Sequence record: OP870144.1 | DNA length: 64,000 bases | Source: Escherichia phage vB_Eco_F25 | Strand: one strand, 5' to 3' | Shown: piece by piece, positions 2,387 to 28,257 of the stretch | Position numbering within the stretch: the stretch's first letter is position 1 | How the letters are laid out: the number at the start of each line of letters is the position of its first letter | The notes under the pieces: generated by a model | Told to the model about the DNA's origin: nothing | Seen by the model: the letters and a program-made list of their open reading frames with translations, nothing else | Databases searched by the model: none | Position numbers and translations under genes: made by a program

Positions 2387-3589
2387 TTATTTTGTAATAA
2401 TGTCAAACTGCTCTTTAAAGCAGAAGCTTGAATCTTGATGCTGATACAAAAATTCATAAGCTTTTTCGCGTTCACGGTCATAAAGAGCTCGGTCAGATGA
2501 CAGTTCTTTAATACGTTCAAATGTTGATTCCATGTCATTTTCATCAAACCAAACGATACCGCTATCGTGCGAAATTAATGGAGTATTATCAACACGGAAT
2601 TTTAAATTTTCGCCAGTAGATTTCCAAAATACTGGAATTGTTCCACATGCACCAAGCTCGAGATGAGTATATTCTAAAGAACGCTGTAGATATTTTTTAT
2701 CTAATTTACTCAGCTGATAACCAAATCCGGATTTACTCATGCGTTCAAGCATTTCGCTATTTACATAACGGTCGAGAATTTGCGTCGGCAAATTAGGAGC
2801 AATTTTAATTTGGTCTACTTGATGAAGACGATAATACTCGTATGGAATTCCTTTTTCTTTAATAGGAATGAACGCTGGAGAACGTTCCAGACCTTCCATA
2901 ATAGTACTTAGTCCTGCAGGTTTAAGATGTTTTTCGTGAAAATCAAACATCTGATAAAAGCCTTTCCATGTAGTAGTACGACCAATCCAACGGTTGATAT
3001 TCATGTTAATTTCAGAAACATCTTTCCAGTAAGTTGATCGAACCTTCGCAATATCCATAGGAGGCTGAAAGTTATATACAGTCGGTGCTTCTTCAATATC
3101 ATCAAACAGTGAAACAGTTTCTGGATACCATTCTTTCATTAAAACTTTATTAAAATCGCCATTATCAGAATGGCTAAAAATAACATCAGCTCGACGAACA
3201 GTTTCTTCTAATCCCAAATTTCGACGCAAAGAAAGAGAAGAATGGTCATGCTGATAAACTACAACACGAACCGAAGGTTTAATGTTATCAATAATTTTTT
3301 TATAGTTATTAATCGTGTCTTCTTCAACTGAAGTAGCAGGAACTGAATTGATAACTAGAATATCACAATCATTTACCAACTTAAGTGTTTTATCGTATTC
3401 TTTTGCCAATAAAACCGGAATTGAAAATGATTTATAATCATGCGCGCAATTACGAGTAAATGATTTATCTTTAGCATAAACCAAAGTTACTTCATGACCA
3501 TTTTTAATAAACCAATCACGCTGCTCAAGAGAAAATTTAGTTACACCGCAACCTTCAAGACCTCGAGCCATAAAAATGCATACTTTCAT
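2387..3589 (-). CDS. a-gt: alpha-glucosyltransferase (glucosylation of hydroxymethylcytosine DNA)
   Basis: 400 aa, same length as T4 a-gt; N-terminus MKVCIFMARGLEGCGVTKFSLEQRDWF. Confidence 0.9.
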   Translation of the reverse strand: MKVCIFMARGLEGCGVTKFSLEQRDWFIKNGHEVTLVYAKDKSFTRNCAHDYKSFSIPVLLAKEYDKTLKLVNDCDILVINSVPATSVEEDTINNYKKIIDNIKPSVRVVVYQHDHSSLSLRRNLGLEETVRRADVIFSHSDNGDFNKVLMKEWYPETVSLFDDIEEAPTVYNFQPPMDIAKVRSTYWKDVSEINMNINRWIGRTTTWKGFYQMFDFHEKHLKPAGLSTIMEGLERSPAFIPIKEKGIPYEYYRLHQVDQIKIAPNLPTQILDRYVNSEMLERMSKSGFGYQLSKLDKKYLQRSLEYTHLELGACGTIPVFWKSTGENLKFRVDNTPLISHDSGIVWFDENDMESTFERIKELSSDRALYDREREKAYEFLYQHQDSSFCFKEQFDIITK

Positions 3590-25045: not shown

Positions 25046-25627
25046 CTAACCAAGCTTTTTAGTTAATTCATTCCAATGTTTTCTACACAAAGAAACATAA
25101 ATTTCATCACCAATACAGATTTGATTACCTTCTTTAACTGGTGTTCCATCTTCCATTAATCGAGCTGTCATAATCGCTTTTTTGCCACAATGACAAACTG
25201 CCTTTAGTTCAATAAGTTTATCTGCAATCGCTAAAAGTTCTTTAGAACCTTCAAACAATTTTCCAGCGAAATCAGTCCTTAATCCATAAGCCATAACAGG
25301 AACATTATATGTATCAACAATTCGACTCAATTGATGCACTTGTTCAGTTTTTAAAAACTGGGCTTCATCTACAAATACGCAATGAATATCTTTTTGTGCT
25401 TCAGCCCATTTATAGAACTCGAAAATATCCATATCATCTGTAATAATATTCGCTTCCTGTTTAATTCCAATGCGAGAAACAACTTCACAGACAGAATCGC
25501 GAGTATCAATAGCAGGCTTAAGAACTAATACACTCATTCCACGTTCTTTATAATTATGTGCAGCAGTCAAAAGAGAAGCAGATTTTCCAGCATTCATTGC
25601 TGCATAAGTAAAAATTAAACTCGCCAT
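25046..25627 (-). CDS. tk: thymidine kinase
   Basis: 193 aa; P-loop NAGKSAS and Zn-ribbon CxxC pairs typical of type II thymidine kinases. Confidence 0.9.
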   Translation of the reverse strand: MASLIFTYAAMNAGKSASLLTAAHNYKERGMSVLVLKPAIDTRDSVCEVVSRIGIKQEANIITDDMDIFEFYKWAEAQKDIHCVFVDEAQFLKTEQVHQLSRIVDTYNVPVMAYGLRTDFAGKLFEGSKELLAIADKLIELKAVCHCGKKAIMTARLMEDGTPVKEGNQICIGDEIYVSLCRKHWNELTKKLG

Positions 25628-25636
25628 ATCACCTTC

Positions 25637-25822
25637 TTAAAGCGTATTCACATAAGCTATTAATTCATTTTCTTTCTTATCAAACCGATCAGCAAATTCT
25701 TCCTGCTGTTCTGGAGATAGCGGGCCGTATTCATCATAAAAGGTGTTTGCTTCTATATGCTCATCTAGAAGTTCATGGATAAGCTCAAACAATTTATCTT
25801 TTTGTTCTTTACTCAGACTCAT
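25637..25822 (-). CDS. hypothetical acidic protein (61 aa)
   Basis: ATG ORF. Confidence 0.5.
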   Translation of the reverse strand: MSLSKEQKDKLFELIHELLDEHIEANTFYDEYGPLSPEQQEEFADRFDKKENELIAYVNTL

Positions 25823-25827
25823 ATATT

Positions 25828-25992
25828 AATTTCCAGGAGTTTTAAAATAATTCGCTTTTGCTTAAATATTTCCATAGTTAAATGACCAGTATCTTTTTGA
25901 CCAATTCCAATGGCAAAACCTTTATTAACAGCGAGTTCAATTAAATTATCAAGCTCACGTAACACTTCGTATTGTAACTCAAAACTATTCAT
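25828..25992 (-). CDS. small hypothetical protein (54 aa)
   Basis: ATG overlapping upstream stop (ATGA); fills a 166-nt gap; below track size cutoff. Confidence 0.3.
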
Positions 25993-26216
25993 TTTGGTTT
26001 ACCTTCTTTAACGAAATCAGGATAAGGATAAAATCCTGAATAAAATCCTTCACCTTTATGATTGATGCATCCTTTATTAGAACAATAGCACCAATAATCG
26101 AAATCACAAGTCATTTCATCATTACATAAAGCAAAAACAACCGGCCACTTACACTTTTCACAATGGGCATTTTTAAGAATACTAGTTTGGCTCATAACCA
26201 TGTAACCTTTAAGCAA
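25989..26216 (-). CDS. cysteine-rich small protein (possible Zn-binding)
   Basis: CEKCKW...CNDEMTCDFDYWCYCSNKGC. Confidence 0.45.
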   Translation of the reverse strand: MLKGYMVMSQTSILKNAHCEKCKWPVVFALCNDEMTCDFDYWCYCSNKGCINHKGEGFYSGFYPYPDFVKEGKPK

Positions 26217-26404
26217 TATTCTTCTACATGTTGTTTACGACCTTTCTTATCAATAAAGGTATATTCAACGAATGTTCCAATGTAGTCTTTATCTACATCA
26301 TGTGGACTATTAATTGGACATTTAGTACGGCAAATGCGTTCCCATTGACGAATAATTTCCACTTTATTTTTAGGGTCAAATGGATGCGGGTAATGTACTT
26401 TCAT
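26192..26404 (-). CDS. hypothetical protein (70 aa)
   Basis: ATG ORF. Confidence 0.45.
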   Translation of the reverse strand: MKVHYPHPFDPKNKVEIIRQWERICRTKCPINSPHDVDKDYIGTFVEYTFIDKKGRKQHVEEYCLKVTWL

Positions 26405-26855
26405 AATCCACCACTATTAAATCAATATCAGGAGTAAACATGTCGATTAATTTAGAAACCTTATCCCAATCACCGCCAGCAATACCACAACCTATACGTG
26501 GAATGTAAATTACCGGTTTAAACAAAAGGGTTTCTGCCTGTAGATTTAATTCTATCATGCAGTTTACTAAAGCACCATAATCAAGATTAGGACCTGGTTC
26601 GTATTGCGTATACAAGTTATAACATATGCCAAAACCATTAGGTTTATGTTTAAAAACAATAGACATATCGCCTAATTTATCACGAGAACCGTACTCAGTT
26701 GTGGTCTTATCTATTTCTAAAATTTTGGGGTAGGCTCTTGCTAATTGACCCGCTACACCTGAACCCATAGTATGAAAACAGTTACACCCGTGCGCAATAA
26801 TATTACCTTCAAGAAAGAGGGCGACAATATCGCCCTTGATATATTTTACAATCAT
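26376..26855 (-). CDS. macrodomain protein (TARG1/OARD1-like ADP-ribose-processing fold)
   Basis: GDIV...IAHGCNCFHTMGSGVAGQLARAYP and PRIGCGIAGGDWDKV resemble TARG1 motifs. Confidence 0.6.
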   Translation of the reverse strand: MIVKYIKGDIVALFLEGNIIAHGCNCFHTMGSGVAGQLARAYPKILEIDKTTTEYGSRDKLGDMSIVFKHKPNGFGICYNLYTQYEPGPNLDYGALVNCMIELNLQAETLLFKPVIYIPRIGCGIAGGDWDKVSKLIDMFTPDIDLIVVDYESTLPASI

Positions 26856-27193
26856 CTAGTACTCAATCCTCGATTATAAGAATCTACCAAACGGTCAACC
26901 ATTGAATGACAAGCGGCTTTATCTTTCTCCTCCGCAACTGAACATTCTAAGGTATTCCACTTTTTAGCATATCGTTTTAACAATGTATCATTTTTGTATC
27001 TGCTTGATTTATCTCTTTCTCCGTCTTTATATGCATATATTAATTTCTGCGCAAATTCAGCTTGGCATGCTTTATTTTTCCCGCAATAATCCGCGGCAGT
27101 ACGGTTTACATACTCTCTAATTTCAGTATATGATGTATTTGCTAACGCAGAAAATGAAATTAATCCTATACATAAAACCAAAATTTTAGTCAT
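26852..27193 (-). CDS. secreted/periplasmic protein with signal peptide
   Basis: N-terminal MTKILVLCIGLISFSALA signal sequence; 113 aa. Confidence 0.55.
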   Translation of the reverse strand: MTKILVLCIGLISFSALANTSYTEIREYVNRTAADYCGKNKACQAEFAQKLIYAYKDGERDKSSRYKNDTLLKRYAKKWNTLECSVAEEKDKAACHSMVDRLVDSYNRGLSTR

Positions 27194-27731
27194 TTACTAT
27201 TTCCAGTAGTTTATTATTTTTAAGGTAGTTAGCCTTTTCTAGGACTTCAGAAGCATATTTAGAACCTGCTTTAACATTCCATCCCGAATTATAAGAGGAT
27301 ATTGCCTTTCTTATATCACCCTTATGTATATTTAACCAATAAGAAAGTTCAATGTACGCCCAGGAAGCTGAATTGGACCGTTTATTCAACATTCTTTTTA
27401 TTTCAGCATCGGTCATATTATAACCAAGTTCCTTAACTCTTGCTCGCATTGTCGGCAAATAATTTTGGAACATTCCATAGGCATGATGCTTTGGTTTAGA
27501 TTTTAAATTAACTCCGGCAGAGCTTTCTTGCCATAAAATAGCAGCCATTATATGACCTAATCCGCTCTTGTGGATATTTTTGTGTGTTTTATATTTTCCA
27601 TCCTTAGAAAATTGTTCCCCGAATTGATACGCGTAACGCATGTTATCGAGTTGGACATTACTGAAAGTATGCTCGGAGCTATGTGCCATCATTGAAATGG
27701 CCAATAGACCAGCGAGTAGTGCTTTTCTCAT
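27186..27731 (-). CDS. SLT-domain lytic transglycosylase with signal peptide
   Basis: Signal peptide MRKALLAGLLAISMMAHS; catalytic ES motif ILWQESSAG, GMFQ and SYNSG motifs. Confidence 0.7.
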   Translation of the reverse strand: MRKALLAGLLAISMMAHSSEHTFSNVQLDNMRYAYQFGEQFSKDGKYKTHKNIHKSGLGHIMAAILWQESSAGVNLKSKPKHHAYGMFQNYLPTMRARVKELGYNMTDAEIKRMLNKRSNSASWAYIELSYWLNIHKGDIRKAISSYNSGWNVKAGSKYASEVLEKANYLKNNKLLEIVND

Positions 27732-27738
27732 GCTTACC

Positions 27739-28200
27739 TCATTGAGTTTTAATTACTGCTTTAGAAGCCTTTCCCGGTAAACGACGACTGTTGATAATTG
27801 CCATCCTGCACTGAAGTGACGGGTCTTTGAACTTCTCGTTAGGTTTACAAACTGTAAATCCAAGCCAAAGATTTCCATCGGTGATTTCTAAACGCCCAGG
27901 ACGATATTCAACCCCATCAATAAAATCCTCATTAATGTCAGGACGCGGAGGCATACTTAGGAATTCATTAACTTCTAAAACATGGTCTTTTATTTTATGG
28001 AATAATTCAAAAACATATGTCTCATCAATCTCCCGTTGAATTGCACGATCAAGAAGATGTTGAGAATATTTTAGATGAAACGATGAGACCCCTGCTGCTT
28101 TTGATGCCTCACGAATCTCATTGTTAATTTGACGAAACTCCGACTCAAAGTGACGACGGAGCTTATTTCGACGGATAAAAACTTCTATGTTGATAGTCAT
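27739..28200 (-). CDS. regB: RegB site-specific endoribonuclease
   Basis: 153 aa, same length as T4 RegB; N-terminus MTINIEVFIRRNKLRRHFESEFRQINNEIREA. Confidence 0.9.
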   Translation of the reverse strand: MTINIEVFIRRNKLRRHFESEFRQINNEIREASKAAGVSSFHLKYSQHLLDRAIQREIDETYVFELFHKIKDHVLEVNEFLSMPPRPDINEDFIDGVEYRPGRLEITDGNLWLGFTVCKPNEKFKDPSLQCRMAIINSRRLPGKASKAVIKTQ

Positions 28201-28216: not shown

Positions 28217-28257
28217 CTGATAGAAAAATTATACCACAGTCAAGAGGAAAAGTAAAC
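28217..28257 (-). promoter_or_regulatory. T4-type early promoter
   Basis: GTTTAC ... TGTGGTATAAT on minus strand. Confidence 0.45.

Follow-up and report, generated by a model that had tools for sequence, protein, structure and literature searches.

How does a T4-like phage multiply in a host whose defense toxin ADP-ribosylates its DNA? We addressed this question through a small gene of Escherichia phage vB_Eco_F25 (sequence record OP870144.1), of which a stretch of 64,000 nucleotides (nt), hereafter the window and given as one strand, was studied. A sequence-only reading had proposed that an open reading frame (ORF) of 159 amino acids (aa) in the tk-regB early region encodes a TARG1-type macrodomain protein, which would reverse ADP-ribosylation by a host defense toxin or edit the modifications made by the phage's own Alt and Mod enzymes. 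The ORF, its location and the strings cited for it (KGDIV...IAHGCNCFHTMGSGVAGQ and PRIGCGIAGGDWDKV) were all confirmed in the translation, which the ORF listing gives with both MIVKYIKGDIVALFLEGNIIAHGCNCFHTMGSGVAGQ... and ...IYIPRIGCGIAGGDWDKV. We conclude that the gene is the ortholog of T4 tk.4, now called adfM, and that it most likely encodes a stand-alone macrodomain ADP-ribosyl glycohydrolase that erases the marks of DarT2 and thereby neutralizes DarTG2. The gene is placed as follows.

26376..26855, minus strand: macrodomain coding sequence (T4 tk.4/adfM ortholog), an ORF of 159 aa with an ATG start, identified by its Pfam Macro match and by synteny.

The gene lies between a tk.3 homolog and vs, which is the slot of tk.4 in T4, and for this reason we regard it as the syntenic ortholog of T4 Tk.4. 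The two proteins are 57-58% identical over 155 aa (BLASTP, E=5e-70), and the T4 product, itself 155 aa long, is annotated as 'phosphatase; contains A1pp phosphatase motif' (NC_000866). DarTG2 ADP-ribosylates thymidine in DNA, and T4 lacking both adfA and adfN remains resistant to it, from which a further factor was predicted (PMC11825919). According to a preprint of November 2025 describing HIDEN-SEQ, tk.4 was the only significant match in a T4 transposon library grown on a DarTG2 host, with reads falling only in the presence of DarTG2, and a clean tk.4 knockout made T4 sensitive to DarTG2; the gene was renamed adfM, for anti-DarT factor Macrodomain (bioRxiv 10.1101/2025.11.20.689424). The jumbo phage PhiKZ has an AdfM of its own, the macrodomain protein gp104, which strips DarT2-made ADP-ribose off DNA in vitro and also rescues cells from the toxin (PMC13309987). 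The earlier proposal that the protein reverses ADP-ribosylation by a host toxin such as DarTG therefore agrees with the genetics of T4 tk.4/adfM. We infer the same activity for the 57%-identical window allele, with thymidine-linked ADP-ribose (dT-ADPr) on DNA as its substrate and a mechanism based on glutamine.

Neither the gene nor its role in T4 is new: the role was published for T4 in 2025, and a macro/A1pp annotation is present in T4-like genomes, including the T4 reference. The orthology nonetheless has practical meaning. T4-like phages would survive DNA-ADP-ribosylating defense by carrying the matching eraser, and AdfM, AdfA and AdfN would make up a complete, layered anti-DarT toolkit. 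The names 'phosphatase' and 'hypothetical protein' should give way to anti-DarT2 ADP-ribosyl glycohydrolase (AdfM family).

Assignment to the macrodomains was supported by profile searches and by structure prediction alike. The protein matched Pfam Macro (PF01661) with 33.1 bits, where 22 is the cut-off, with residues 22-136 covering profile positions 2-117 of 118, and matched PHROG 335 (named 'phosphatase') at E=2e-71. Together with homologs in 2,774 of 50,697 phage records, spread over many genera, these matches exclude a chance ORF at the level of sequence. An AlphaFold2 model, computed from an alignment of 79 relatives from which T4 Tk.4 was left out, had a mean predicted local distance difference test (pLDDT) value of 94 and a predicted template modeling (pTM) score of 0.89. 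Its six strands and five helices follow macrodomain topology, namely an alpha/beta/alpha fold around a six-stranded mixed sheet. Lack of a Macro profile match, or of an ADP-ribose pocket in the predicted structure, had been named as the outcome that would overturn the macrodomain assignment; both pocket loops are present, the GxG loop at G31-A35 and the Gly-rich loop at P119-W130, and ADP-ribose binding is predicted.

Which kind of macrodomain is it? Structure comparison of the model with known macrodomains gave the following values.

BT1257: 18.5
M. tuberculosis DarG macrodomain: 17.6
Yeast Poa1p: 17.3
Thermosipho DarTG: 16.9
Human TARG1: 16.8
Best of the coronavirus/MacroD-type domains: 13.7

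Foldseek placed TARG1 first (E=2e-9, template modeling score 0.73-0.82), followed by Poa1p, BT1257, DarG and SCO6735. A sequence search with a profile of the phage family again brought up these proteins, at E=1.6e-18 to 4e-10, as against 3e-3 for nsp3 macrodomains. The best NCBIfam model and the best PADLOC model were both DarG, each far under the equivalog cut-off. The ALC1/TARG1-like class comprises TARG1, DarG, SCO6735 and Bt_1257, as described in the SCO6735 study (PMC9411070). Given the closest structures, the Foldseek ranking, the family-profile matches and the best NCBIfam and PADLOC models, sequence and model place the phage protein in this class of hydrolytic macrodomains, with a clear gap to the MacroD, PARG and macroH2A types.

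The residues of the pocket allowed a finer assignment. Four elements were located in the window.

26751..26765, minus strand: GSGVA, the GxG phosphate-binding loop after strand 2 (codons G31-A35), which aligns to TARG1 G41-A45.
26781..26783, minus strand: Asn25, the conserved macrodomain Asn (HGCNC motif), invariant in 79 + 138 relatives.
26604..26606, minus strand: Gln84, at the catalytic-lysine position of TARG1 (K84, by hhalign) and DarG (K80), invariant in 217/217 relatives.
26466..26501, minus strand: the diphosphate-binding loop PRIGCGIAGGDW (codons P119-W130), in which P119, G122, G124 and W130 are invariant.

The relatives counted here are the 79 that were aligned and 138 further 50%-cluster representatives. 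Within the former, H22, N25, C26, G33, A35, D49, N80, Y82, Q84, P119, G122, G124 and W130 were invariant and G31 nearly so; Q84, N25, C26, A35, D49, Y82, G122 and G124 were also invariant in the latter. The hhalign alignment placed Gln84 opposite K84 and Ala126 opposite D125 of TARG1, for which the sequence used was identical to PDB 2LGR. It also set the phage 'NLYTQ' opposite 'NMIGQ' of BT1257, with Gln84 facing its Gln. Correspondence with DarG K80 rests on the TARG1 alignment together with the published equivalence of K80, K84 and SCO6735 Q85. The motif of loop PRIGCGIAGGDW is the PRIGCGLAGG.W of BT1257 and SCO6735; TARG1 has PRIGCGLDRLQW instead, and it is this difference that brings its D125 onto Ala126 of the phage protein. 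The alignment to SCO6735, made with a C-terminal query of 100 residues, covers the diphosphate loop only, so that Asn25 was equated with SCO6735 N27 by position in the motif (H22..N25 against H24..N27) rather than by alignment. The loop that follows Gln84 has 8 residues in 53 of the 79 aligned relatives and 10-12 in the others.

These residues have been examined by mutation in SCO6735. The SCO6735 study reports that this protein lacks the lysine of TARG1 and DarG and has Gln85 in its place, that Q85A or Q85E abolishes activity, that Asn27 positions Gln85 and N27S is nearly inactive, and that Gly128 of the diphosphate loop matters; it further reports that SCO6735 strips DarT-made ADP-ribose off thymidine and protects cells from DarT (PMC9411070). 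The N23A construct of PhiKZ AdfM, which alters the corresponding Asn, likewise has reduced activity (PMC13309987). With Gln84 at the lysine position, the invariant pocket residues and a diphosphate loop like that of BT1257 and SCO6735, the phage pocket is, by sequence comparison, of the Gln type. The label 'TARG1 type' thus held for the fold class and failed for the catalytic residues, K84 and D125 having given way to Gln84 and Ala126. Assignment of the pocket of T-even AdfM to the Gln type of SCO6735, and not to the Lys type of DarG/TARG1, is a modest addition of the present work, the available portions of the T4 preprint making no mention of it.

Two further residues, Asp49 (26709-26711) and Cys26 (26778-26780), were invariant in all 217 family members examined. 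The accessible parts of the literature on SCO6735, TARG1 and DarG assign no role to these residues, which could serve a catalytic or structural purpose specific to the family.

From these observations the following mechanism can be proposed. The macrodomain gene would be expressed early, together with the regB-vs.1-vs-tk block. Its product would remove the ADP-ribose that the host toxin DarT2 puts on thymidine in single-stranded phage DNA, which would restore replication and neutralize DarTG2, making the protein an orphan antitoxin carried by the phage. By analogy with SCO6735, the chemistry is most likely independent of lysine: a Gln positioned by an Asn (Gln84 and Asn25 in the phage protein) would hold the distal ribose, the GxG and GCGIAGG loops would hold the diphosphate, and water would carry out the hydrolysis.

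Several findings weigh against this assignment. First, the functional evidence comes from T4, and T4 Tk.4 and the window allele differ in 42% of their residues. Second, the function of T4 Tk.4 itself rests on a knockout phenotype in a preprint whose available portions report no biochemistry, and whose authors inferred, rather than showed, enzymatic removal of ADP-ribose from DNA (bioRxiv 10.1101/2025.11.20.689424). Third, the DarG equivalog model NF048014 scored 27.8 bits, far short of its cut-off of 250, and matched in its macrodomain part only (positions 2-142 of 338); the 159-aa protein is a macrodomain and nothing more, with the DarT-binding domain absent. Fourth, the loop directly after Gln84 is six residues shorter than in BT1257 (hhalign), and K34 and K89, with which SCO6735 holds DNA, apparently have no counterpart, falling on S32 and approximately G88 by numbering offset rather than by alignment. 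Fifth, the protein is acidic, with an isoelectric point (pI) of 5.07. Acidity as an argument against action on DNA was dropped because PhiKZ AdfM, at pI 5.05, is just as acidic and yet works on DNA.

We considered four other roles for the protein. One, which we hold to be unlikely, is that of an ADP-ribose-1''-phosphate phosphatase like yeast Poa1p, clearing the by-product of RNA 2'-phosphate removal. Similarity to Poa1p and the old database name 'phosphatase' would fit this role, but that name derives from a motif and not from an assay, and many macrodomains have the activity as a side reaction. Moreover, the sole phenotype reported for the T4 ortholog is specific to DarTG2. To our knowledge, T4 RNA repair (Pnk/Rnl1) leaves no 2'-phosphate, and we know of no source of ADP-ribose-1''-phosphate in T4 infection; there is therefore no obvious source of substrate for such an enzyme. 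Residues H23 and S30 of Poa1p have reportedly been probed by mutation in connection with its structures.

We give less credence to the idea that the protein also or mainly reverses ADP-ribosylation of uracil in RNA (U-ADPr), or of other nucleic acids, by toxins other than DarT2. Efficient hydrolysis of U-ADPr is known from TARG1 and TARG1-like bacterial macrodomains (PMC13036486), and by analogy it is plausible as a side activity of the phage protein. However, our literature search gave no bacterial defense that produces U-ADPr during T4 infection, and CmdTAC, which ADP-ribosylates mRNA, defends strongly against T4 despite tk.4.

It is very unlikely that the protein instead destroys or sequesters small immune signals or toxins derived from ADP-ribose, a role that Iyer and colleagues proposed for phage Macro domains on comparative grounds (PMC9503650). 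Consistent with such a role, bacterial relatives are orphan genes with no adjoining toxin; one of them, a Pelagimonas protein of 152 aa and 40% identity, has no toxin gene beside it, a setting that resembles the orphan status of SCO6735 more closely than a DarTG operon. Against this, experiments have since linked NADAR (AdfN) and macrodomains (T4 AdfM and PhiKZ AdfM) to reversal of DNA ADP-ribosylation, and the phage pocket residues match those that SCO6735 needs for dT-ADPr hydrolysis.

Editing of the phage's own ADP-ribosylation of host proteins by Alt, ModA and ModB, the other half of the sequence-only proposal, found no support and is scarcely credible: T4-like phages do have three ADP-ribosyltransferases, but Alt and Mod modify arginine, and arginine-linked ADP-ribose is cleaved by ARH/DraG-type enzymes and is not known to be cleaved by macrodomains of the ALC1/TARG1-like class, whose known substrates are Asp/Glu esters and thymine or uracil bases. 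The DarTG2-specific behavior of tk.4 described in the preprint likewise speaks against editing. We know of no phage-encoded eraser assigned to Alt, ModA or ModB, and the alt, modA and modB loci presumably fall outside the window, judging from T4 coordinates.

How the window allele came to differ so strongly from T4 became apparent when it was compared with its surroundings. Over the surrounding 10 kb the phage matches many Tequatrovirus genomes at 96-97% identity, and the genes form a same-strand block of rI.-1, rI, rI.1, tk, four small ORFs, the macrodomain ORF, vs, vs.1 and regB. Gene names were assigned by comparison with the annotated T4 record (NC_000866), and the percentages refer to amino-acid identity to T4.

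25046-25627, minus strand: thymidine kinase (tk), 99.5% identical to T4 Tk.
26400..26746, minus strand: divergent allele segment of the macrodomain gene (codons ~37-152), defined by DNA identity to T4 and synonymous divergence (dS).
26852-27193, minus strand: vs, 96.5% identical.
27186-27731, minus strand: vs.1, 99.4% identical.
27739-28200, minus strand: regB, 98.7% identical to T4 RegB.

The products of rI.-1, rI, rI.1 and the tk.3 homolog were 100%, 96.9%, 98.6% and 92.9% identical, respectively, as against 57% for the macrodomain ORF; the exception among these near-identical neighbors was a short variable tk.1-tk.2 stretch. In blocks of 30 columns, DNA identity to T4 was 30-77% within 26400-26746 and 77-100% on either side, mostly 93-100% through vs, and the low-identity stretch begins after codon 36. 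Codons 37-152 had dS=3.6 and a nonsynonymous divergence (dN) of 0.51, hence dN/dS ~0.14, whereas dS in neighboring genes was 0.07-0.35. Positive selection was rejected as the cause of the divergence because of this ratio and the saturated dS. The same two values indicate that recombination introduced an old, functional allele of the macrodomain gene, as opposed to recent adaptive change in place. This deeply divergent, recombined allele is the second, again modest, addition of our analysis.

Identity to the window protein was bimodal across the phage collection, with 318 records at 90% or above, only 1 at 80-90%, 122 at 60-80% and 2,333 below 60%. The T4-type allele, at 57-58% and in the same slot, falls into the last of these classes. 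Beyond phages, a profile search of 1.84 billion cluster representatives returned 18,389 at E<=1e-3 and 1,225 at E<=1e-30. A broader proposal, which we consider doubtful, is that T-even AdfM proteins, instead of being captured DarG antitoxins, make up a very large clade of their own, which is lysine-free (invariant N-C...D49...N-x-Y-T-Q...P-x-I-G-x-G) and has a distinct water-based chemistry. The allele split, 57% within genomes that are 96-100% identical, would then be kept by matching different DarT2 variants or by escaping host factors that sense or block the enzyme. Given the Gln-for-Lys site and the exchange of a divergent allele, specificity toward different DarT2 toxins could be studied in a natural pair of variants.

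The macrodomain gene is tightly packed between its neighbors, as is usual for the T4 early gene block. Two overlaps were found.

26852..26855, minus strand: ATGA in which the vs stop and macrodomain start codons overlap, read off the sequence.
26376..26404, minus strand: 29 nt shared by the macrodomain 3' end and the beginning of the 70-aa gene downstream (T4 tk.3 homolog, DUF7202).

The ATGA overlap suggests co-transcription and coupled translation of the macrodomain gene with regB-vs.1-vs. A sigma-70-like site just upstream of regB (28228-28256, minus strand; TTTACT, 17-nt spacer, TG, TATAAT; 10/12 matches) qualifies as a candidate for the early promoter of the regB-vs.1-vs-macrodomain-tk block, although promoter-like sites were not in excess in the promoter and terminator scan of the region (16 against 16.9 expected from shuffles). 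The terminator scan also flagged, on both strands, an 8-bp GC-rich inverted repeat GAGGGCGACAATATCGCCCTT at 26817-26837, inside macrodomain codons 7-13. It has no good T-run on the coding strand and is probably a coincidence of the KGDIVALF codons.

Several neighbors deserve comment in their own right. The block from tk to the macrodomain gene is variable, with four small ORFs in the window (25637-26404, minus strand) as against three in T4: DUF7438 (61 aa), PHROG 3452 (57 aa), Phage_zn_bind PF23895 (70 aa) and DUF7202 (70 aa). The DUF7202 ORF is the tk.3 homolog, at 93% identity, and the first of the four shares 54% identity with T4 tk.2. Nothing in the T4 tk-vs block corresponds to the 57-aa ORF or to the zinc-binding one, the best identities being 19-24%. 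A homolog of the DUF7202/tk.3-like gene (26192-26404; 2817-3029 of locus L001) is called 'putative ABC transporter ATP-binding protein' in GenBank OK272476, where small mobD.x genes are named molybdopterin-guanine dinucleotide biosynthesis proteins. Both sets of names look like propagated annotation errors. The N-terminus of vs ('valyl-tRNA synthetase modifier'), MTKILVLCIGLISFSALANT, resembles a secretion signal peptide, which one would not expect in a protein whose stated target is an enzyme of the cytoplasm, and vs.1 combines a signal-like N-terminus with an SLT lytic transglycosylase domain. In the HIDEN-SEQ preprint, vs is the most depleted T4 gene in minimal medium (bioRxiv 10.1101/2025.11.20.689424).

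Comparison of the phage protein with the closest known systems gave the following picture. The DarG antitoxin of DarTG2 (PDB 5M3I, 5M31, 7OMU) has a C-terminal DarT-binding domain and an adjacent darT, and the phage gene has neither, its neighbors being the tk.3 homolog (DUF7202) and vs; the catalytic Lys80 of DarG is Gln84 in the phage protein. Human TARG1/OARD1 (PDB 4J5R/4J5S), the top Foldseek match, shares the short loop after the catalytic position and the PRIGCG motif, and it too removes dT-ADPr. Its dyad K84/D125 is replaced by Q84/A126, however, and identity is 20-22%. SCO6735 and Bt_1257 share with the phage protein the Gln at the catalytic position and the supporting conserved Asn. 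They differ in being basic where the phage protein is acidic, and in a mobile loop, five residues longer than in DarG/TARG1, that defines their subclass in the SCO6735 study (PMC9411070) and is absent from the phage protein. Nor do the DNA-holding K34 and K89 of SCO6735 seem to be conserved. SCO6735 has been shown to hydrolyze thymidine-linked ADP-ribose on DNA, and by analogy this activity is predicted for the phage protein. PhiKZ gp104 resembles the phage protein in standing alone, in its ~160 aa and in its acidity, and it counters DarTG2 (PMC13309987). Its similarity is nonetheless remote (hhalign E=8.5e-10, 22% identity), and that alignment was unreliable at the catalytic strand, where the lysine fell two residues off Q84 at low confidence, and was not used for residue mapping. 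Remote similarity and a DarG-like 'FPTK' lysine motif in place of NLYTQ point, at the sequence level, to an independent acquisition. T4 Tk.4 itself is the closest counterpart: it has the diphosphate loop GAGIGKG where the window protein has the family consensus GCGIAGG, and it agrees with the window protein in the tk.3-vs slot, in length class (155 against 159 aa) and in the invariant pocket residues, including NLYTQ.
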